A stretch of 64,000 nt of DNA from Escherichia phage EC150. A program made the translations under genes and the position numbers. The notes beneath the pieces were generated by a model that saw only the letters and a program-made list of their open reading frames with translations, searched no databases and was not told the origin of the DNA. Positions within the stretch are counted from its first letter, which is position 1. Each line of letters begins with the position of its first letter. The stretch lies in sequence record ON210137.1. One strand, given 5' to 3'. Positions 2,178-58,911 of this stretch are shown here, piece after piece.

Positions 2178-2540
2178 GATACGCCTAAAATACGGCTAAA
2201 AATTAAGCGTATCATGGCTGCAGGCCGCGTCGTTCCTGGATTCTTCTTTTTAAAATTGGTACACCCTTACGTCATGATACGTCATGGTTTTTTATCCGTA
2301 TCAGTGTACAGCCCTTGCCGCGCCTGGCTTGTACATTAATCTTACGGATGATACGGATAAAACTGGGCATCGTTATATATAAAACTCCAAAAATAAATAA
2401 ACTCCATTTTAAAAACATTTATATTAATTTTTTTCATATCCTCATACTTATGTTAATTTATATATTTAACGTATCATCCGTAAGATATAAGTAAAAACAA
2501 AGACTTGCGGCAATACGGATGATACGTCATGATACGCTTC
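2178..2540. repeat. Repeat locus A: inverted GATACGG/CCGTATC-type repeats (CTTACGGATGATACGGATAAAA at 2341-2362; inverse CGTATCATCCGTAAG at 2470-2484) flanking a ~105 bp AT-rich core
   Basis: Read directly; further copies at 2178-2196, 2208-2218, 2269-2304, 2511-2537. Confidence 0.6.
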
Positions 2541-2763
2541 AACCAGCCAGCAGCGGCTAAGTCATTGATTTGCATAACAAGCGGCGAAAGGGATGGATTT
2601 CTTTTATACGTATCAAACAGTACACCACGCACCACGGTCCGCTATTCATTCAGTACTATGATTTGTGTACGTTTACAGCCAATTTGAACATCAATCTGCA
2701 CTTGAATATAATGTTCATTCATTGTATAATTCACACTATTAATTTGCACTATGGGATTTGCAC

Positions 2764-3238
2764 TATGAGTCAAGATTATGTAGCAATGCCTGAAGACTTT
2801 GAAGACCCGCGATTTGCAGAGCATAATCAGGCATTATTCGATGAGTTCATTGACCTTGTTATTCAGGGCCATGACATGCGCGCAGCTTTTGCACTAGTAT
2901 TTGGCATGGAGGTTGCGACCGATAACTACACTGGCCAGCGAGTCCTCTGCACGCAACGCAATCCGTACTACAAGATGCGCTACAAAAAGCGTATGGAAGA
3001 GATGCCATTGAAGGAATTGTGGAGCGTAAAGAGTTCCATCCACAATTTAGTGAAGCTTGTGCGTGATCCAGAAGTCGCGGCGTCAGCCAAGCTTAATGCC
3101 ATTCGTGAACTGAATATCATCTACGGCATCACGATGATTGATGAGAATGGCAATAGTAAAATGGGCCGTTCCATGGACGATTTCTACAAGGATTTTGGAG
3201 AGGCAGCCAAAGAGGGTGAGCAATTCTCCCGCCACTAG
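2764..3238 (+). CDS. hypothetical protein (158 aa)
   Basis: In-frame ATG 2764 (MSQDYVAMPEDFED...) inside track ORF 2570..3238; upstream extension starts at TTG and is low-complexity; start codon overlapped by an ATTTGCACTAT copy. Confidence 0.5.
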
Positions 3239-3258
3239 CCAATTTGCACTATAAAACG

Positions 3259-3291
3259 GCCCTAGAACACATTTTCTCCACTTCTAGGGCC
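3259..3291. terminator. Perfect 10-bp stem hairpin (GGCCCTAGAA / TTCTAGGGCC, 13-nt loop) between convergent genes
   Basis: Inverted repeat read directly; 20 nt after stop of CDS 2764..3238; weak U-tract on minus strand only. Confidence 0.45.
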
Positions 3292-3666
3292 ATCGGTAAT
3301 ACGACGGGGAAGGTTACAACCATAAACGCGTTAGAAAGTGTATTATTATAAGTCATCTTTTAGTCACTTTACGTAACAATTTACGACCTTCCGCCGTCCA
3401 GTCGAACGACTCCACCAGCAGATTTGCACTATAACCTAAGACGATGCGCCCTTTCTCGTTATCGACCCGCCAACAAGTCTCGAATAGCATTCGATTTGCA
3501 CTATTAACTATCGCCGCAACGCGCGCTGGGTAAGCGCAATTTGCACTATGGTCGTAAAGGGATAAGGTGCGACCACTTCCGATGGACAACGTAGCGATGA
3601 GAATAAGCGTATTCATAAGCCACCAATTTGCACTATGAAAAGCGACCCCGAAGGGCCGCCATTCGA

Positions 3667-50435: not shown

Positions 50436-50987
50436 TTATACGGTGTACGGAGTACCGTCTTGATTCAAGCGCACGATAAACTTAAGGTCGACGCCAATAA
50501 TATCACGCGTGTCAAAGATCACATAGTTGTAGCGACGTTGACCAGCAATGTTAGGATTGGTGTGGGAGTCGGTGATGACTTCCTGCGCAACCTGAATATG
50601 TTCGTTCTTAAAGAACTCACGCCATTCGGCAAGTTCTGCGGCAGTCACGTGCATGCCAAGGTGGCTAACCTGATTATCGTGCGCATCGATGTATTCAATG
50701 TTTTCGTTAATCCAGTTGCAGCCCTTTGTGTAGTCAAGGATTTCAAGCTCAAGAGGCTTACCAGCGCTGCCATCAGTTCCGTTTCCAGCTTGATAGTTGA
50801 AGCGTAAATCAGCTTCGTTGGTGCAATCGCCGCGCTGGCCTTTAAAGTCATCAGATTCAAATACGCGACCAGTAGCAACAACGTGATCATGGAACCATTC
50901 TGTCAGGCCGATTTTAGCCAGGAAATTCTGTGCGCGCTGAGCACCTGGGATTGACAGGGCGATTTGTTCAATTTTAAAATGTGGCAT
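50436..50987 (-). CDS. hypothetical protein, possibly VOC/glyoxalase-like
   Basis: ORF track; weak resemblance only. Confidence 0.45.
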   Translation of the reverse strand: MPHFKIEQIALSIPGAQRAQNFLAKIGLTEWFHDHVVATGRVFESDDFKGQRGDCTNEADLRFNYQAGNGTDGSAGKPLELEILDYTKGCNWINENIEYIDAHDNQVSHLGMHVTAAELAEWREFFKNEHIQVAQEVITDSHTNPNIAGQRRYNYVIFDTRDIIGVDLKFIVRLNQDGTPYTV

Positions 50988-51083
50988 TTTGTTTCCTTAA
51001 TTAAATATTATTGATTAATTACTGTGTTATCTTCGTCCTGTTTCTTTTCAGGAGCGGGTGTGACAACTTCAAATGTTCGTGAT

Positions 51084-51767
51084 TTATTTCCCAAATGGAA
51101 TATCAGTACCAGACATAAAGCGCCATGCGCCCGTAATTAAGATATGGCGAATGAAGTCAGCAATTACTTGCGGCTCAGTCTCCAATCCATTCATCAGTGC
51201 CTTTTTCTGGTATTCAGCAGCATACTCAGGAGTCCAGCCGCGAGTCGCGCAAACAGCATCTTCAATCTGTTTGGACATGCCAGTACCACGTAGCTTGTTA
51301 GGACTAATAGAGAATACCGTGATGCCGTATTTAGGCGTAAGCTCGTGAGCCATCTGCTTGCTAATCATAAGCGCAGCAGCCTTGGATGCATTATAACACA
51401 AGCTGGACGTCATAGGAATGTGCGCAGCGTTAGAAACGATATTGATCACAAAACCTTTGTTGTCGATAAGACTTTTCAGCGCGGCTTGAGTCGTGTTAAC
51501 GAAAGAGAATGCGTTGGTGTGCATAACGCGATTGAACTCTTCGTAGTTAACATCTTCGAACCAGTTGTTGGAGTTGACGCCAGCGCAGTTGATCAAGCCT
51601 TCTACATCATATGGGCTTAAAATTTCTTTCATCTGTTTAGCGTCGCGGACGTCATATCCGTATGCTGAATCGATGCCAAGCACGTTATGACCGTAAGCGC
51701 CAAGGGTGTCAAAAATAGATTTACCAAGACCGGAATTGGAACCTGTTACAACAATTACTTTTTTCAT
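51084..51767 (-). CDS. short-chain dehydrogenase/reductase (SDR) family oxidoreductase
   Basis: N-terminal cofactor-binding VTGSNSGLGKSI (TGxxxGxG) and catalytic YNASKAA (YxxxK). Confidence 0.8.
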   Translation of the reverse strand: MKKVIVVTGSNSGLGKSIFDTLGAYGHNVLGIDSAYGYDVRDAKQMKEILSPYDVEGLINCAGVNSNNWFEDVNYEEFNRVMHTNAFSFVNTTQAALKSLIDNKGFVINIVSNAAHIPMTSSLCYNASKAAALMISKQMAHELTPKYGITVFSISPNKLRGTGMSKQIEDAVCATRGWTPEYAAEYQKKALMNGLETEPQVIADFIRHILITGAWRFMSGTDIPFGK

Positions 51768-51790
51768 TTATTTATCCTTTTTGGACTTCG

Positions 51791-51820
51791 TTTCGATGAG
51801 ATAAATATAACTCATCGAAA
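51791..51820. other. perfect 10-bp stem-loop (TTTCGATGAG / CTCATCGAAA, 10-nt loop) between HAD-like and SDR genes
   Basis: Inverted repeat read directly; no T-tract. Confidence 0.4.
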
Positions 51821-51832
51821 CGCACAAGTAAA

Positions 51833-52705
51833 CTATTTATTGAAATTAATATTATGGGTGTTGACAAGACGTTCACACATGGCGCTGTAAACACCATCGT
51901 CGTGTATTGAGTCTTCGTGCTTCAGGCCGCTGATTGCGAAGCGTGTAAGCTTGACAATCTTAAGCTCGAACAGATGCCACATGTGGTAGTCTTCCGGCGT
52001 TTTCAACGTTACGCCATTAGGGAAAAGCACCTGCATAACCTGGCCTACCATCACAGCGTTATCGCCATAGACAGCGTTGCGCTCACGAAAGGTTGCTGCC
52101 ATTGCATCAAGAATATCGGCGGCAGTTGCCGGAGATTGTTCAACTTCCACAGCCTTAGTCTCTTCTTGCCCTGTTGCGCTTGGATCAATTGCTAATTGTT
52201 GCACCACTTCACCTGCCTTGCAAAGATTAAATGTAAAAGCGATTTTATTTTGAGCAACGGAATTATAATACAATGCTTCATCTTGCATCCGCGCGAGTAC
52301 GTCTTGTCGGTCGTCGAATACGTTGATGATTCGATAATCGCCGTGGCGCAATGCGTGCGATAGCCATGCAGATTTCATAATAGTTGATGGACGTTTGTCG
52401 CCATAGTCTCTCATCTTGATTGTAAATTCATCAAAAGGAAAAACATTGTCCAGACGTTCAAAAGTCACTTGTCTGTATTTTTCTGGCCTTGCAGTCCAAT
52501 ATTCAACCGCCTCACCGCGAAGAGATGCCGACTCTACTGCTGATGCAATGTGAGGATAGAACTGATCATAACCAATACCGCTATGATAGTCATCATAGTC
52601 TGACAACGGACCTGCCACCTTGATGCGGTCTAAGCGCCAACGGTCATCAAACAGCGTTCCGTCAAGGTCGAATACGTTTAAGATTTCGCTGTTTTTAATG
52701 CTCAT
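51833..52705 (-). CDS. HAD-superfamily phosphatase-like protein with C-terminal domain of unknown function
   Basis: HAD motif I VFDLDGTLFDD near N-terminus. Confidence 0.5.
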   Translation of the reverse strand: MSIKNSEILNVFDLDGTLFDDRWRLDRIKVAGPLSDYDDYHSGIGYDQFYPHIASAVESASLRGEAVEYWTARPEKYRQVTFERLDNVFPFDEFTIKMRDYGDKRPSTIMKSAWLSHALRHGDYRIINVFDDRQDVLARMQDEALYYNSVAQNKIAFTFNLCKAGEVVQQLAIDPSATGQEETKAVEVEQSPATAADILDAMAATFRERNAVYGDNAVMVGQVMQVLFPNGVTLKTPEDYHMWHLFELKIVKLTRFAISGLKHEDSIHDDGVYSAMCERLVNTHNINFNK

Positions 52706-53505
52706 CCTTTTGATACTCCATCTTTAGCAACTGGATTGTTGGTGATTGGCATCGCACTCCAAAACTGGATGCGCAACTCTTCTTGCTGTGACGTGGTATC
52801 CATCCAATCACGATACCAAGGGCAATGGGCTTTGCCATGACGAGGAAACGCGCATTTACCCATACCGATGCATTGCGGCTGTAATAATGGATTTGCCCAC
52901 GGGTGCACCTTGAGGACTTCCGCAACCATTGCGCGGAATACTTCTTGATACTCGCCTTGAGTGCGCGTGCACAAGCGGTTTGACGCCATCTGCTGCAGCG
53001 TGCGCAAGTTGAACTTTGCCATGATATGCGTTTGCATATTAGAAGGCAACACGGCACGTGCATCTTGAATCTCTGCGCCAGCCGCGCGAAGCTCTTGATA
53101 CAAAGCATCGATAGTCGCCATCGCATCATCCCACTTCTCTGCCAGTTCAGCGGCCTTCTCGTCATGACGAGTCCATCCCTTTGGATCATCCTCTGGGTAA
53201 GTGAATTTAGCAGGACGAATCGCATCAAATGCAGACGACTCCTGAGCGCGGCTGGTGCGTTCTTGATATGCGCCTGTGCGTGTGCGTACCATCTGATGGG
53301 TCATGTTCTTTGATACATCTGTGATATCAAAGATATAGTCCACAAAGTCAAAAGGCGACTTGATTGTATCAAGCATGTAGCGCCAATGCTCTTGCTTCTC
53401 TGATTCCGTCATCTCAGAGACAGGCTTACCAGTCATGCGCGTGTTCTTTGTTTCCAGCAAAAGGTCAAGTGCATCTTGGGTGTATCGAATTAATTCAACT
53501 TTCAT
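52702..53505 (-). CDS. flavin-dependent thymidylate synthase (ThyX)-like protein with divergent signature motif
   Basis: HQMVRTRTGAYQERTSR resembles ThyX HxxVRHRxxSxSQxSxRY block but with RTR in place of RHR; C-terminal NLRTL...TQGEYQEVFRAM also ThyX-like. Confidence 0.55.
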   Translation of the reverse strand: MKVELIRYTQDALDLLLETKNTRMTGKPVSEMTESEKQEHWRYMLDTIKSPFDFVDYIFDITDVSKNMTHQMVRTRTGAYQERTSRAQESSAFDAIRPAKFTYPEDDPKGWTRHDEKAAELAEKWDDAMATIDALYQELRAAGAEIQDARAVLPSNMQTHIMAKFNLRTLQQMASNRLCTRTQGEYQEVFRAMVAEVLKVHPWANPLLQPQCIGMGKCAFPRHGKAHCPWYRDWMDTTSQQEELRIQFWSAMPITNNPVAKDGVSKG

Positions 53506-53518
53506 TTTAATTATCCTA

Positions 53519-53965
53519 TTAACGGTAATTCACTAGTTGCTGATCACCAGAGAAGGTGCAATGATAAACGAATTGTGCGTTATAAAGCAACTGAAAACTT
53601 TTCTTTGGTTCATTATTAGAACTCATCGATGTAAAGATTTCTGCACCAGAACGGTTTTCACCAATCAGATTAATAAAGCCGCCAGTTGAACGAGGCTGGA
53701 CGAAAGTGAAACGTTGCATCCACGGAGTACGGTTGGCACCTTTCCCTGTGAATCCCTGAATCTGAATATTCAGACCTTCTTGCTCGTTCACACCGATGTA
53801 AGTGGTAATCTTCGCACCAGTCGTTGCTGCGGTCTTACCGTCCATCGCTTCGCAATCGTAAACAGCGATTGAATCGGAAGTACGGATGGCAGCTTCAGTC
53901 GCTTCCATATACATGGTGCCGAGAATAGCAGTTGCGGCAAGCGCGATTCCAGTGATTCGTTTCAT
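53519..53965 (-). CDS. exported protein with N-terminal signal peptide (148 aa)
   Basis: N-terminal MKRITGIALAATAILGTMYMEATEAA hydrophobic signal-like segment. Confidence 0.5.
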   Translation of the reverse strand: MKRITGIALAATAILGTMYMEATEAAIRTSDSIAVYDCEAMDGKTAATTGAKITTYIGVNEQEGLNIQIQGFTGKGANRTPWMQRFTFVQPRSTGGFINLIGENRSGAEIFTSMSSNNEPKKSFQLLYNAQFVYHCTFSGDQQLVNYR

Positions 53966-54030
53966 TTCCGTTTCCTCTATGAGTTCTGCTTCAATGATTA
54001 AAGTATACGCCCATTGAAGCAGAAAGCAAA

Positions 54031-55026
54031 TTATTTATTAGCAATATAAGCAAATTTTTGATAGTTATTTGCTTTGATGAGTTTTTCAACTTCAACAAGG
54101 TCATGAGCGACGTCATCAAGCAAAATGTTGCGCCAGGTAGCAAATCGACCGACACTAAACACGTTCAAATCCATGGTCAGCTGCAGGAGTAGGGCGTGTC
54201 GCAAGTCTTTCGGAATGTCGACAATCTTGCCATATTTCTGGTCGACCTTTTCAACTTCTTCAAGAGCAATGTCACTCCATGAGAGGCCAAAAGCTGTCAA
54301 CACTTCGTCGACTTCTGCGCGCAGCTTGATGTCACGGTAACGAGTGATGCCGCCAGCGGCTTCAACTGCAGCTTCACTCACGCTGACCAAAGGAATTGTT
54401 TCAATGATCAGTGTGTCGCCAGTGATTGATGCGCGGTAAGTTCTGACGGAGTAGTCAGGGAAGTAAATTGTTTGATACAAATCACACTTACGTTTAATCT
54501 TAAAGCGGTAAACGCGAATGTTTGCTTTATCAAATGAGAAATCAAGCTTTTGATCAATCCCAGCCAGCTTCATCATGACTGGCAGCGGCGACGTGTTGAT
54601 GATTGGCGTCTCGCTATAGCCGCAAAGAGTATCAACCGGAGTATTAAAGAATATGCGGTCACCCAGTTTGTCGACAAGCTGATCATAAAAGTCATCAGGC
54701 GCAATATAACGTGTTGCAGTCTTAAGCTTCATGATTGAACGGCTGCCAAACTGATTGGTGACCTTCATGGAATACATATTGGCAAGGTTGATTGGGCAAT
54801 GGTCGTGGTAGTAGTTGCCGCGAAAATACACAGCCTTGTCAACTGTCACGGCCTTGAAAGGGATTCCGGTAATACGGCTTACTTCTTCGCCGCGAAAGCG
54901 TAGAAGCGCCTTGTGCTGTTGCGCTCGTTCCCCTGCTTCGTACACAATAGAGTTCGGGAAGTGACACGCTGTGATAAGTCCTGCCAGTCCGCCGCCGATA
55001 ATCATTACAGGTTGTTTCATGTTCAT
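54031..55026 (-). CDS. FAD/NAD(P)-binding Rossmann-fold oxidoreductase-like protein
   Basis: N-terminal dinucleotide-binding motif VMIIGGGLAGLITA (GxGxxG). Confidence 0.55.
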   Translation of the reverse strand: MNMKQPVMIIGGGLAGLITACHFPNSIVYEAGERAQQHKALLRFRGEEVSRITGIPFKAVTVDKAVYFRGNYYHDHCPINLANMYSMKVTNQFGSRSIMKLKTATRYIAPDDFYDQLVDKLGDRIFFNTPVDTLCGYSETPIINTSPLPVMMKLAGIDQKLDFSFDKANIRVYRFKIKRKCDLYQTIYFPDYSVRTYRASITGDTLIIETIPLVSVSEAAVEAAGGITRYRDIKLRAEVDEVLTAFGLSWSDIALEEVEKVDQKYGKIVDIPKDLRHALLLQLTMDLNVFSVGRFATWRNILLDDVAHDLVEVEKLIKANNYQKFAYIANK

Positions 55027-55104
55027 TTGTCCTTTGTGGGTGATATGAGAAGTATAATAGCTAAATTATTTTACAGCAACAAGTCATTTTATTTAGTACA
55101 GATG

Positions 55105-55131
55105 AAAAAAGACCCACAACAAGTGTGGGTC
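55105..55131 (-). terminator. rho-independent terminator on minus strand (GACCCACA-ACAA-GTGTGGGTC plus T-tract)
   Basis: Palindrome with AAAAAA on + strand (T-tract on minus) just below the stop of CDS 55159..56004. Confidence 0.6.
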
Positions 55132-55158
55132 AATTACCGCTGCATAACCGTCCTAAGG

Positions 55159-56004
55159 TTATTCCGCTTGATCACCGTCTTCGGCATCTTCGTTGGATTC
55201 AACATCGACAAACTCGATGTGACCCATCTCTTCCAGCTTGCTCAGGTAGGAGCGAACTGAAGCGCCAAACAGTTGATCTTTAACTTTTTCGCCCAGCTCA
55301 TCGATAGACTGTGCCACGCCAACTTCGCCTTCTTTGATCGCCGCCAGAACGCGTCCACGGGTGGAATGCTCTTGCGGCTGACTCAGGCCATTGCCAGTGT
55401 AGATGAAGTGAGTAGCTTTTGCACGACGCTGACCATTGGCCTTTTTGGCAGCCTTACGTTCTGCGATGGCTTTGCGACGTTCTTCAGCTTCTTGCTTACG
55501 CTGTTCTTTCTGCTGTTCTGCAGCTTCTTTCGCCGCAATCTTAGCAGCTTCACGCTCTGCCTTGCGTTTCGCTTTGGCTTCTTCTTTGGCCTTCTCTTTT
55601 TCGGCCTTCGCTGCAGCACGGGCTTGATCACGCTCTGCTTTCTTAGCAGCAGCTTGTTCAGCTTTCAGGCGCTTGGCTTCTTCTTTAGCCTTTGCCTTTT
55701 CGATTTCTTTCGCTGCTTTAGCGGCTTCACGCTCTGCTTTCTTAGCAGCAGCCTTTTCTGCACGCTCTTTGGCCTTCTTGGCTGCTTCTTCAGCACGCTT
55801 CTGAGCCTTCTCATCAGCAGCCTGCTTGCGTTTCAGGGCAGCTTCTTCACGCTTGGCTTGTTTTTCCTGCTCACGCTTCTGGCGTTTTTCTTCGGCTTCT
55901 TTCTTTTTAGCCAGACGTTTTTCTTCAGCCACGCGACGACGTTCTGCTGCAGCTGCTTGTTTTTCTTCTTTAGATAATACTTTGATTGCTTCGGCCATGT
56001 TCAC
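55159..56004 (-). CDS. Lys/Ala/Glu-rich repeat protein (long charged helix, histone H1-like / TolA-like repeats) with C-terminal acidic domain
   Basis: About 190 aa of KAEEAAKKA-type imperfect repeats then a globular region and acidic tail EDAEDGDQAE; repetitive DNA 55400-55950. Confidence 0.55.
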   Translation of the reverse strand: MNMAEAIKVLSKEEKQAAAAERRRVAEEKRLAKKKEAEEKRQKREQEKQAKREEAALKRKQAADEKAQKRAEEAAKKAKERAEKAAAKKAEREAAKAAKEIEKAKAKEEAKRLKAEQAAAKKAERDQARAAAKAEKEKAKEEAKAKRKAEREAAKIAAKEAAEQQKEQRKQEAEERRKAIAERKAAKKANGQRRAKATHFIYTGNGLSQPQEHSTRGRVLAAIKEGEVGVAQSIDELGEKVKDQLFGASVRSYLSKLEEMGHIEFVDVESNEDAEDGDQAE

Positions 56005-56157
56005 AGTCCTTAAATAAATTAGTTTATTTTATATTCCCCGTTTGGGATAACTTAATTATGCCTTCAGTCGCCGCCAGTAGCAACTAAAAACTCTGGCAGC
56101 AATGCCACTTTAATTAAACTGATTTTCAGTTTTATTTTTCGTAAATTTACGTCAACA

Positions 56158-57342
56158 TTAACGCGCTTTCAAATCACGGTACACGGTCAGATTCTTTTTA
56201 GCGCGGGTAATAGCGGTGTACATCATCTTTGCATACGGAACGCCGCGCAGGATTTCTTCCAACACGCACACATTGTCCCACTCGCTGCCTTGCGATTTGT
56301 GCACCGTTATGACATAGCCATAGTCCATGCCTCCAACGGCTCGTTGGGCCTCTTTGCGCACTTCCTGATCAGTAGAGAAGGAAAGAGGATTTATCTTCAC
56401 CTTTATATCTTTGCCATCGGTAAGCGAGCGCAAGTTGACATACATGATTTCATTAGACTCGTCTTCATCCCTTTCAAAGTCCGGCACTGGCTCATAACTA
56501 ATAACAATCCCTTGCTCGCCATTACAGAATCCTGGACCGTGTTGGTTGAATGTGCAAATAACTTTCTCTCCGATTCCTGGCATCGGCGTTATACGTCCGC
56601 TCACTTGCCGCAATAATGAATTCCATTTATCTTTGGTGCTATTATATGAGCAAATAATTTGATCATCTTCGCCCATGAATTTCTTCAACGCAGTAACGCG
56701 CGGCGATTCAGCCAACACCTTGACATCATCGTATTCACGCGGAGGAAGTCGGTTGCCCTGTCGCACGAAGAAGGAAGCGCGGATGATGTTGGACTCTTTC
56801 CCTTGCCGCATGATTTCGGTTAACAGTACGTCAACGGCATCTTCAGTAAAGTAGGCGGCGGCTTTTACCGGAGGGACTTGTCCAATGTCGCCTAATGCCA
56901 GAACAGGGATGCGGTGATCAAGAAGGCGCTCTGCGTCCCACTCGCCAACCATTGAAGCTTCATCAAGGACGACAAGATGCGGCCTTTCATCAAGCGTTGA
57001 CTTCCTTGCAAAGATTGGTTCATTGTCATCGTTAACGCCGCGCACGTTATAGATGAACTGGTGAAGGGTCTTAGCGCCACGACACCCTTTCTGCTTCAAT
57101 CGGCTGGCGGCCTTTCCGGTCGGCGCAATATAAATGGCACCGTACTCACCGACACAACGGCGCACAATCTCACGCGCAATAGAGGTTTTACCTGTTCCTG
57201 CATAGCCAGCGATGAAAAACACGCGCTTCGTTGTTTTGCCGTCCTGCAATCGCTTGTACCATGCAACGGCCTTTTCGATGGCGTCAATCTGTTGCGCGTT
57301 AAACTGAATCACTGGCTCATCATTAAATTCTGGAATGTTCAT
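56158..57342 (-). CDS. Dda/RecD/Pif1-like superfamily 1 DNA helicase
   Basis: Walker A AGYAGTGKTS, Walker B VVLDEASM, C-terminal YVITVHKSQGSEW motif. Confidence 0.75.
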   Translation of the reverse strand: MNIPEFNDEPVIQFNAQQIDAIEKAVAWYKRLQDGKTTKRVFFIAGYAGTGKTSIAREIVRRCVGEYGAIYIAPTGKAASRLKQKGCRGAKTLHQFIYNVRGVNDDNEPIFARKSTLDERPHLVVLDEASMVGEWDAERLLDHRIPVLALGDIGQVPPVKAAAYFTEDAVDVLLTEIMRQGKESNIIRASFFVRQGNRLPPREYDDVKVLAESPRVTALKKFMGEDDQIICSYNSTKDKWNSLLRQVSGRITPMPGIGEKVICTFNQHGPGFCNGEQGIVISYEPVPDFERDEDESNEIMYVNLRSLTDGKDIKVKINPLSFSTDQEVRKEAQRAVGGMDYGYVITVHKSQGSEWDNVCVLEEILRGVPYAKMMYTAITRAKKNLTVYRDLKAR

Positions 57343-57668
57343 TATAACTCCACTACGCTTTCAAGGTCCAGATATACTGGAATAAAATGGCAATCTTCTT
57401 TTCGTTCAAACATCTCACCGTCAACATGACTGAAGAAAACAGTTGTGTTTGGTATCTTCCACCCTTGCTCGCCGCGCACTAGGTATGCCATGGATTCAAC
57501 AGGGATGTAAAGCGATACCGGATTTGCGGCAAAGATGAATTTGATTCTGTCTGGTTGACCAAGGAATCGCATAATTGTAAGACTTGAATTCAGTCTTGTA
57601 TTAAGGAAGGACTCAACGATGCCGACGTGTGTTGCACGTTCGCGTTGCTTCGTATCTTTTTCGTTCAT
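57342..57668 (-). CDS. hypothetical protein (108 aa)
   Basis: ORF track; 1-nt overlap with helicase start. Confidence 0.45.
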   Translation of the reverse strand: MNEKDTKQRERATHVGIVESFLNTRLNSSLTIMRFLGQPDRIKFIFAANPVSLYIPVESMAYLVRGEQGWKIPNTTVFFSHVDGEMFERKEDCHFIPVYLDLESVVEL

Positions 57669-57771
57669 TTCAGGCGACCTTTGTTAGTGCGGAAATATTT
57701 TCTGATAGTATAATTGCAGATATAGTATAAAGCAAAGTAAATCGAAATTGTGAACTAAATGGTAAATATTG

Positions 57772-57799
57772 TTGACTTTGTATCACTCAATATTATACT
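57772..57799 (+). promoter_or_regulatory. putative sigma70 promoter TTGACT-16-TATACT
   Basis: Hexamers read directly about 30 nt upstream of the GGAAAGAAAG Shine-Dalgarno of CDS 57829. Confidence 0.5.
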
Positions 57800-57828
57800 G
57801 CAGGTATTGATCACCGAAGGAAAGAAAG

Positions 57829-58911
57829 ATGGCTAGTTTAAGAGAAGAAGCAAAAATAATCGAAGAGTTTTTGACAGAACTCCAAAGAGGCATTCCAGAA
57901 GATGAACGCGTCATGACCGTGTTTGCGCCTGAAGCAACGGTGCAGACCGACGAGCGCGGCAAAAAGATTAACAGCAGCTTCTGGCCTAAGCCTTGGAAGC
58001 TTGGCAAGCCGCTGATGCAACATCAGAACGGTTACGCCTGCATAAGTTCAATGCGTAAGTCTCCCAACCCAAAGACAGGCGAGATGCGATACTGGCGCAC
58101 GGAATCGGCTTTCGGTCATGGCATGGCGATGATGGTCGACGACATCGGTCACGGTAAAGGGTCCAAAGGCGATTTAGATTTAGAGTTCTTTTTCGAGCGT
58201 CTGAAGCCAACCGTCATTGTTGAGACTTCACCGAACAACCACCAGCTGTGGTATTTCTTTAAAGACCCGATTGACCATCTTATCCAGTTCAAAGCATTCC
58301 TTGGGTCTTTCGTAAACATGGTACTCAAGAAGGGCGGCGACAACACGATTAAAGACGTGACGCGCGTGGGCCGTGTTCCTGGTTGCATCAACAACAAGCG
58401 TGTGACTCACGACGGCCCTTACAAATATGTCGATGAGAACGGCGACCCGTTCCGCTGCCGACTTGTCCATGCAGACTATTCTTTGCGATACACAATCGAA
58501 GAGATTTGCCAAGCCTTCGGTTTCCACGTCGTTATGCCGCAAAAGCGTGAAATTCAAATTGACGTTGACGAATACAAATATGATGCTGTTTGGTATAAAA
58601 TAGCCCAGCAAATCCTTTCGCGCAATAAGATGGGTGAAGGGTCCGATGGCGATGTTGTTGAAAACATGTCAGGTAAATGCCGCATCATCTGCCCTTGGGG
58701 TGAAGAGCACACCAACGGCGACCCATATGGCGCTTACTTTCGCGGCCCAATCCCTGGCGCTGAACATGAATTCGTTTTCGGTTGCGCTCACGACTGTCAC
58801 CGGAAAGGTGAAGGTAAGAAAGGCTGGACAGCTTTTGTTGAAGCAGTAGTCATGCCTTATATTGAGAATCAACTTGATATGATAAATCGTCGCGCAGGTG
58901 GCATAAAATAG
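57829..58911 (+). CDS. archaeo-eukaryotic primase (AEP)-type primase-polymerase with C-terminal Cys/His zinc-binding region (putative)
   Basis: AEP-like motifs: DxD-type MAMMVDDIGHG, His motif NNHQLWYFF, RVGRVPGCINNK; C-terminal CPWGEEH...CAHDCH. Confidence 0.5.
   Translation: MASLREEAKIIEEFLTELQRGIPEDERVMTVFAPEATVQTDERGKKINSSFWPKPWKLGKPLMQHQNGYACISSMRKSPNPKTGEMRYWRTESAFGHGMAMMVDDIGHGKGSKGDLDLEFFFERLKPTVIVETSPNNHQLWYFFKDPIDHLIQFKAFLGSFVNMVLKKGGDNTIKDVTRVGRVPGCINNKRVTHDGPYKYVDENGDPFRCRLVHADYSLRYTIEEICQAFGFHVVMPQKREIQIDVDEYKYDAVWYKIAQQILSRNKMGEGSDGDVVENMSGKCRIICPWGEEHTNGDPYGAYFRGPIPGAEHEFVFGCAHDCHRKGEGKKGWTAFVEAVVMPYIENQLDMINRRAGGIK

Follow-up and report, generated by a model that had tools for sequence, protein, structure and literature searches.

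In a stretch of 64,000 nt of DNA from Escherichia phage EC150 (ON210137.1; the whole stretch is referred to here as the window), a gene on the minus strand encodes a 279-residue protein whose long Lys/Ala/Glu-rich region is not a loose repeat: it is a helical rod of ∼26 nm, equivalent to ∼78 bp of DNA, with a continuous basic stripe along one face and an acidic back. The rod leads through a basic junction into a winged-helix domain and an acidic tail, and we tentatively read the protein as a rod-shaped, DNA-associated accessory protein of the phage replication module. The 281-codon open reading frame (ORF) that an earlier note on this DNA had singled out at 55159..56004 of the minus strand is present in the ORF list of the window. 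Annotated relatives all use the ATG at position 55998 as their start, giving a coding sequence of 840 nt (55159..55998; 279 aa and a stop codon) that corresponds to gp073 of Escherichia phage Mansfield, gp32 of FEC19 and PHROG 4765. The match to the PHROG 4765 profile (E = 2.3e-84) pairs residues 3–281 of the 281-codon ORF with profile positions 14–271 of 294. The gene is already catalogued, as a PHROG 4765 protein without an assigned function, and searches of Pfam, NCBIfam and the PDB, made with the whole protein and also with profiles, returned nothing significant. Positions 54000–58000 of the window are 99.3% identical to Mansfield and 94–98% identical to 27 other Wifcevirus genomes; the source of the window is a Wifcevirus, one of the PB1-like myoviruses currently placed in the family Lindbergviridae.

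The anatomy proposed in the earlier note, a long charged helix followed by a small globular region and an acidic tail, was borne out by amino acid composition and by AlphaFold2. Residues 11–195 consist largely of A (31%), K (24%), E (21%), R (12%) and Q (7%); these 185 residues include 66 basic, 40 acidic and 7 bulky hydrophobic residues, and no proline. The full-length AlphaFold2 model (a single chain, built on a 12-sequence alignment) contains one continuous helix over residues 10–185, with block values of the predicted local distance difference test (pLDDT) of 79–96, a compact domain over residues 197–264 and a disordered acidic tail. Confidence dips at residues 181–190, with pLDDT falling to 65 at the junction. 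A second model, of residues 186–279 with 30 homologues, has a pLDDT of ∼96 across the domain and the element order strand, H1, strand, H2, H3, strand.

The four parts can be placed on the minus strand of the window as follows. The helix (residues 10–185, 176 aa), delimited by AlphaFold2 and Fourier analysis, occupies 55444..55971. The junction (residues 186–196; 55411..55443) carries the basic motif G-x-R-R-x-K-A-T-H, in which conservation of R191, R192 and T196 among 30 family members is 90% or higher. The winged-helix domain (residues 197–264; 55207..55410) carries the invariant R249 and K254 in its third helix, which in this fold usually serves for recognition. The tail (residues 265–279; 55162..55206), judged disordered from its composition and from AlphaFold2, contains eight D/E and no K/R, and an acidic tail of variable length is found in most aligned relatives. 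We regard this architecture as well supported.

The regularity of the helix proved to be of a different kind from the imperfect KAEEAAKKA-type repeats that had been described: there is no short tandem peptide repeat, and what recurs is a charge pattern with an 11/3 periodicity. Fourier analysis of charge positions gave a peak at 3.66–3.69 residues for both K/R (z = 17) and E/D (z = 9) relative to shuffled sequences, while Ala has no peak at a period of 3.67 residues. The observed power was reached by none of 2,000 block shuffles and none of 2,000 phase scrambles, the latter preserving the local pattern and destroying long-range phase. When the helix is written in 16 rows of 11 residues, K/R stand at positions 0, 3, 7 and 10 in 11, 12, 9 and 10 rows, respectively (42/64), and E/D stand at positions 2, 5, 8 and 9 in 8, 7, 7 and 6 rows. 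Since the charge positions are fixed every 11 residues, the basic residues form a straight stripe on one face of the helix and the acidic residues occupy the opposite face, the two being ∼170–180 degrees apart. There is an excess of like charges at i+7 (z = 3.4), and E to K pairs at i+4 are not enriched (z = −0.8). The sole true internal repeat detected with Tandem Repeats Finder is a 99-nt duplication (55574..55752 on the minus strand; 1.8 copies, 79% matches), which pairs residues 83–115 with 116–148 (33 aa, or three hendecads; 20/33 identical). The longest exact DNA repeat in the gene is 26 nt.

Opposed faces of this kind would also permit open-ended lateral stacking, with the basic face of one helix lying on the acidic face of the next, and the protein could on that account be a self-assembling scaffold whose sheets, fibres or condensate organise the replication zone. 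Hendecad K/A/E helices are known from gel-forming CAHS and LEA-type proteins, and a CAHS chain was indeed one of the two weak matches of a PDB profile search, the other being ATP synthase subunit b (E ∼0.3–0.5). AlphaFold2 says nothing on oligomers here because a single chain was run. The helix, however, lacks a hydrophobic seam, and self-assembly leaves the conserved winged helix and junction unexplained; we consider such a scaffold improbable.

A total of 356 phage records, seemingly all from PB1-like phages, contain the C-terminal domain, with host names dominated by Pseudomonas (293) and followed by Escherichia (26), Serratia (9), Burkholderia (6), Xanthomonas (6) and Pantoea (3), along with Luteibacter and Vibrio. 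The protein is present in most of the Lindbergviridae genera sampled. A word-indexed homologue search with the C-terminal domain returned just three proteins, and an exhaustive search was needed, which found 28 among 1.84 billion cluster representatives. Orthologues with the same three-part architecture and the same neighbours include Mansfield gp073, FEC19 gp32, PB1 gp69/ORF66, 14-1 ORF66, LBL3 gp64 and a BcepF1 protein. Nearly all full-length members share one plan, namely a variable N-terminus, a charged region, the G-x-RR-x-K-A-T-H motif, the winged helix and, in most cases, an acidic tail. Many metagenomic relatives (P0007–P0010, P0013, P0020, P0023, P0025 and P0026) have a histidine-rich N-terminus (e.g., MSHGHHHH..HTHG), a feature not found in the Wifcevirus and Pbunavirus proteins, which suggests metal binding in those relatives.

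The charged regions of relatives, 74–187 residues in length, could not be confidently aligned, and their comparison therefore rests on charge periodicity. A K/R periodicity of 3.66–3.70 was significant (p ≤ ∼0.015) in 22 of 26 members, including 14-1 ORF66, and across those members the acidic residues lie 137–194 degrees from the K/R stripe. Measured against the junction motif, the phase of the stripe clusters tightly, with a resultant length of 0.83 in 28 proteins over the 44 residues closest to the motif and of 0.77 in 25 proteins over the part farther away, bearing in mind that the proteins are related and the samples hence not independent. As the phase clusters despite the varied length of the helix, length changes must have kept phase, and the sole visible duplication, at exactly three hendecads, is consistent with this. 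The azimuth of the stripe relative to the winged helix is thus conserved in most of the family.

A repetitive, low-complexity region such as this one opens ORFs in several frames, and the region could in principle be non-coding repetitive DNA, or its true gene could be the antisense ORF of 234 codons in the ORF list (55273..55977 on the plus strand). The chance of either is close to negligible. The ratio of non-synonymous to synonymous substitution rates (dN/dS) in the minus-strand frame was 0.038 overall for seven Wifcevirus copies, with 426 synonymous vs 64 non-synonymous differences summed over the 21 pairs. Conservation of the winged-helix domain and the homologues found across the family, including those in the 356 phage records, likewise belong to the minus-strand frame, and the F/L/S-rich product of the plus-strand ORF is the shadow of the low-complexity coding strand. 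By region, dN/dS was 0.020 for the helix, 0.045 for the C-terminal domain and, for comparison, 0.020 for the adjacent helicase of Wifcevirus; to judge from these comparisons, the gene is under strong purifying selection. We also observed that dS is lower in the helix part (55444–55971; 0.087) than in the winged-helix part (55207–55443; 0.217) or the helicase (56158–57342; 0.261). Possible causes are a constraint on codons or at the RNA level, high expression, or a recent recombination event.

The expectation that the repeats would make the gene prone to length variation did not hold within the genus. Each of the seven Wifcevirus copies read has a length of exactly 840 nt, and the 28 Wifcevirus records that align across the whole 4-kb region differ in total length by at most 4 nt. 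Between genera length does differ, the charged region ranging from 74 to 187 aa as given above.

The globular part of the protein has the winged-helix topology H1-S-H2-H3-S and gives structural matches to known winged helices. Foldseek searches returned nothing significant from the PDB, and orthologues only from viral models. The invariant or near-invariant residues of the family are R191, R192, T196, S206, Q209, S212, R214, G215, R249, K254 and E256; six of them (R191, R192, S212, R214, R249 and K254) are placed where winged helices usually contact DNA. From R249, K254, R214, S212 and the R191–R192 pair, we infer DNA binding through the recognition helix and the wing. Residues ∼205–242 bear a faint likeness to YejK/NA37 (PDB 9be2, E = 0.33; 4 of 30 members match PF04245 below threshold). 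Identity as a YejK/NA37 nucleoid-associated protein was considered and rejected, there being no significant profile or structure match and no support from fold searches.

The position of the gene between an enzyme cluster and a Dda-like helicase, as it had been described for the window, agrees with the gene order of annotated relatives. In Wifcevirus and Pbunavirus the order is Dda-like helicase, this gene, a flavoprotein resembling UDP-galactopyranose mutase (UGM), others including ThyX and PNK/phosphatase, and Pol III epsilon and alpha. The helicase-to-PNK part of this order is seen in Luteibacter phage Pluto, where the stretch examined stops short of the polymerase. In Vibrio phage JSF39 the gene has an unannotated helicase ORF immediately on one side and Pol III epsilon/alpha immediately on the other; on one metagenomic contig just a small ORF and a PNKP-like gene stand in between, and on another the helicase and the gene are separated by five small genes. 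The gene is downstream of a Dda-like helicase in all contexts examined. Because the order holds even without the intervening nucleotide-metabolism genes, the link is to the replication genes and not to the enzymes. The helicase of JSF39, a 394-aa Dda-like ORF at 2230–3414 of the JSF39 sequence (L013) and directly upstream of the homologue, is missing from the GenBank annotation.

Taken together, a nucleic-acid ligand is the most economical explanation because one protein unites a winged helix, whose recognition-helix side bears invariant Arg, Lys and Ser, with a basic junction and a straight basic stripe at a fixed azimuth, and a role in replication or nascent-DNA handling is favoured because of the constant place of the gene beside helicase and polymerase. 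Under this tentative reading, the winged helix and the basic junction would anchor the protein on DNA and the basic stripe would lie along the duplex for a length of ∼78 bp. The acidic back face would prevent cross-linking of the coated DNA, while the acidic C-terminal tail may compete with DNA or recruit a partner. Acidic regulatory tails are known in SSB, T4 gp32 and HMGB1. The protein would then serve replication or the handling of new phage DNA, beside the Dda-like helicase and the Pol III-type polymerase. Of the DNA-condensing, nucleoid-remodelling or scaffold role suggested in the earlier note, the relation to DNA remains the most plausible part, given the winged helix and the basic stripe; condensation itself is doubtful because the acidic face opposite the stripe argues against the bridging of two duplexes.

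A number of observations weigh against a DNA-associated role. The net charge of the helix is modest, at +26 over 185 residues (∼+0.14 per residue), and the winged-helix domain is slightly acidic (net −3). Protein-binding winged helices (RPA32C, kleisin/Scc1 and ScpB) are among the structural hits and score as well as the DNA-binding ones. Sequence and Foldseek searches gave no significant match to any characterised DNA-binding protein, no conserved operator-like palindrome was found upstream of the gene in other genera, and literature searches found no experiment on any member of the family.

Several of these points would suit a protein that makes no direct contact with DNA and serves the replisome as a tether or spacer: the winged helix and acidic tail would bind a protein partner (possibly the primase, the Dda-like helicase or the Pol III alpha/epsilon pair), and the rigid helix would act as a ∼26-nm ruler or bristle. 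The equal scores of protein-binding winged helices and the net charge of the domain fit such a role, as do the constant linkage to the helicase and the fixed length of the helix within the genus. A spacer, however, needs neither charges segregated onto two faces nor a conserved phase of the stripe with respect to the head domain. Moreover, the helix varies 2.5-fold in length between genera, and the N-terminus, which would be the other end of the tether, is not conserved. A pure tether is consequently a possibility that we rate as unlikely.

A further possibility is that the protein would be a clamp-independent, DNA-tracking accessory of the replisome: the winged helix and acidic tail would hold the helicase or polymerase, and the stripe would slide electrostatically along the duplex (hypermodified in Pbunavirus relatives) as a processivity or tethering rail. 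The polymerase of the module is a bacterial-type Pol III alpha/epsilon pair, and neither an SSB nor a sliding clamp was recognised in the replication module (39446–62538) in the BASEL annotation or in PHROG scans of the larger hypothetical proteins. We put this forward as a long shot; if true, it would be a new use of a single alpha-helix on DNA. For the favoured reading of a DNA-associated accessory protein, binding of DNA as proposed would represent a new geometry of protein-DNA association, and could account for the organisation of a replisome in which no SSB or clamp can be recognised. The hosts of the gene lend it a wider relevance, the PB1-like phages of the genus Pbunavirus being some of the P. 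aeruginosa phages with the most use in therapy and Wifcevirus being very fast-growing coliphages.

Expression signals were sought around the gene on the minus strand. A consensus scan identified a candidate sigma-70-like promoter at 56055..56083 (TTGCTA, 17 nt, CATAAT; 9/12 matches). A Shine-Dalgarno sequence read from the DNA, AAGGA at 56007..56011, lies 8 nt before the ATG and is kept in an alignment of six genomes; a ribosome binding site is annotated at this place in Mansfield. Downstream, a predicted intrinsic terminator at 55101..55131, with an 8-bp stem (GACCCACA/TGTGGGTC) followed by a T run, is annotated in Mansfield and WFC and has an equivalent 3′ of the orthologue in LBL3 and 14-1. 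Since it has a promoter-like site, a strong ribosome binding site and a terminator, the gene looks monocistronic and appears to form its own transcription unit. The spacer between the helicase stop and the gene (56005–56157; 153 bp) is 98% identical across six Wifcevirus genomes, exceeding the conservation of synonymous sites in the flanking genes. It holds a perfect 12-nt palindrome, CGTAAATTTACG (56140–56151), and an AAACTGA/TCAGTTT hairpin (56116–56132). Autoregulation via these upstream palindromes was considered and rejected: both occur once in the window and neither has a counterpart in other genera.

The enzyme cluster downstream of the gene (50436–55026, minus strand) encodes a glyoxalase-fold protein, an SDR/FabG-like reductase, a HAD/PNK-type phosphatase, ThyX, a small protein and the UGM-like flavoprotein. 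Possibly this cluster is the unassigned pathway behind the sugar-like hypermodification of thymidine reported in Pbunavirus DNA, where hypermodified thymidine occurs in TG context (PMC12191111). As the DNA of Pbunavirus is hypermodified, the DNA met by the protein may be modified. The UGM-like protein occurs in 361 phage records and its spread is nearly that of the gene. An obligate link between the two was nonetheless rejected, as their distributions overlap yet are separable, the UGM-like protein being absent from the Burkholderia phages and present in Rhizobium phages. The anti-END nuclease inhibitor of Pbunavirus was likewise dismissed as an identity for the gene product, that protein being 14-1 gp88. 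Amid the cytoplasmic nucleotide-metabolism genes, 53519–53965 (minus strand) encodes a 148-aa protein with a signal-peptide-like N-terminus (MKRITGIALAATAILGTMYMEA), for which a PHROG scan gave no match.

The names given to the protein in databases are of little help. Mansfield, WFC and the BASEL phages list it as a ‘hypothetical protein’, and FEC19, ECML-117 and BcepF1 as a ‘TolA protein’. The labels in FEC19, ECML-117, BcepF1, LBL3 and JG024 would make it a TolA-like envelope protein, a cell-wall hydrolase or a virion structural protein, a reading that is largely refuted and that we think very improbable. In a BLASTP comparison with E. coli TolA, the E-value was 1e-32 uncorrected because both proteins have long Lys/Ala/Glu-rich helices; it rose to 0.08 under composition correction, and the match was lost with SEG masking. 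No TolA model of Pfam or NCBIfam matched, even at E-values up to 1–10, and the N-terminus (MAEAIKVLSKEEKQ) has no hydrophobic segment that could serve as a membrane anchor or signal peptide. In the records read, ‘putative structural protein’ is backed by nothing but a note in LBL3, which reads ‘putative cell wall associated hydrolase’. Furthermore, the orthologue SCUT-S1 ORF69 was not among 31 virion proteins identified by mass spectrometry, which is weak evidence because DNA-free ghost particles were used and the protein offers few usable tryptic peptides. The location of the gene in the replication module also speaks against an envelope or virion role. We conclude that ‘TolA’ and ‘structural protein’ are composition artefacts, and that the name ‘helicase’ is also unsupported. 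Fusion with the helicase, as the label ‘ATP-dependent DNA helicase’ in phage Nello might imply, was rejected, as that label stands on a separate gene. These results correct a misleading annotation in >350 genomes.

The resemblance to TolA domain II that the earlier note had remarked upon is therefore one of composition and not homology. Both have a long Lys/Ala/Glu-rich helix, but TolA is without the 3.67-residue charge periodicity (z ∼ −2), and the phage protein has a winged helix at its C-terminus in place of TolA domain III.

The likeness to histone H1, raised in the same note, similarly does not extend to homology. A winged-helix globular domain with a Lys/Ala-rich extension does recall linker histones and the bacterial H1-like proteins AlgP and Hc1, and together with the basic stripe it would fit a nucleoid-condensing protein that neutralises and compacts host or phage DNA. 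However, no linker-histone model of Pfam or NCBIfam matched, and the Foldseek hit to the GII domain of Hho1p was insignificant (E = 2.7, probability 0.14). In contrast to the H1 extension, that of the phage protein is a regular helix, 22% acidic and free of proline, with the modest net charge per residue noted above. With the order of domains opposite to that of H1 and an acidic face that disfavours duplex bridging, an H1-like role is rather improbable.

The helix also invites comparison with other long charged helices. ER/K single alpha-helix (SAH) domains are long, solitary and charged, and an 11/3 periodicity is known in ATP synthase subunit b, LEA group 3 and CAHS proteins. Like an ER/K SAH, the phage helix lacks a hydrophobic seam, having 7 bulky hydrophobics in 185 residues and no heptad a/d register. 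The segregation of its charges onto opposite faces, in place of interleaving, and the lack of enrichment of E to K pairs at i+4 show that it is no classical ER/K single helix; its Ala content, at 31%, is a further difference. With the hendecad coiled coil of ATP synthase subunit b it shares the 11/3 periodicity, but the core positions a, d, e and h (0, 3, 7 and 10) are basic in the phage helix and there is no hydrophobic stripe, and it is therefore not a coiled coil.

Winged-helix DNA-binding proteins with long helical extensions are known, examples being KfrA of plasmid RK2 and Hop2-Mnd1. Neither KfrA_N nor any other Pfam family matched the full protein or 30 C-terminal domains. Compared with KfrA and Hop2-Mnd1, the domain order of the phage protein is reversed, with the helix N-terminal, and the helix has no heptad hydrophobic core. 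The combination of a phase-locked, two-faced helix with a winged helix has no match in the curated families and solved structures searched, and is best described as a new variation on the winged-helix protein with a helical extension.

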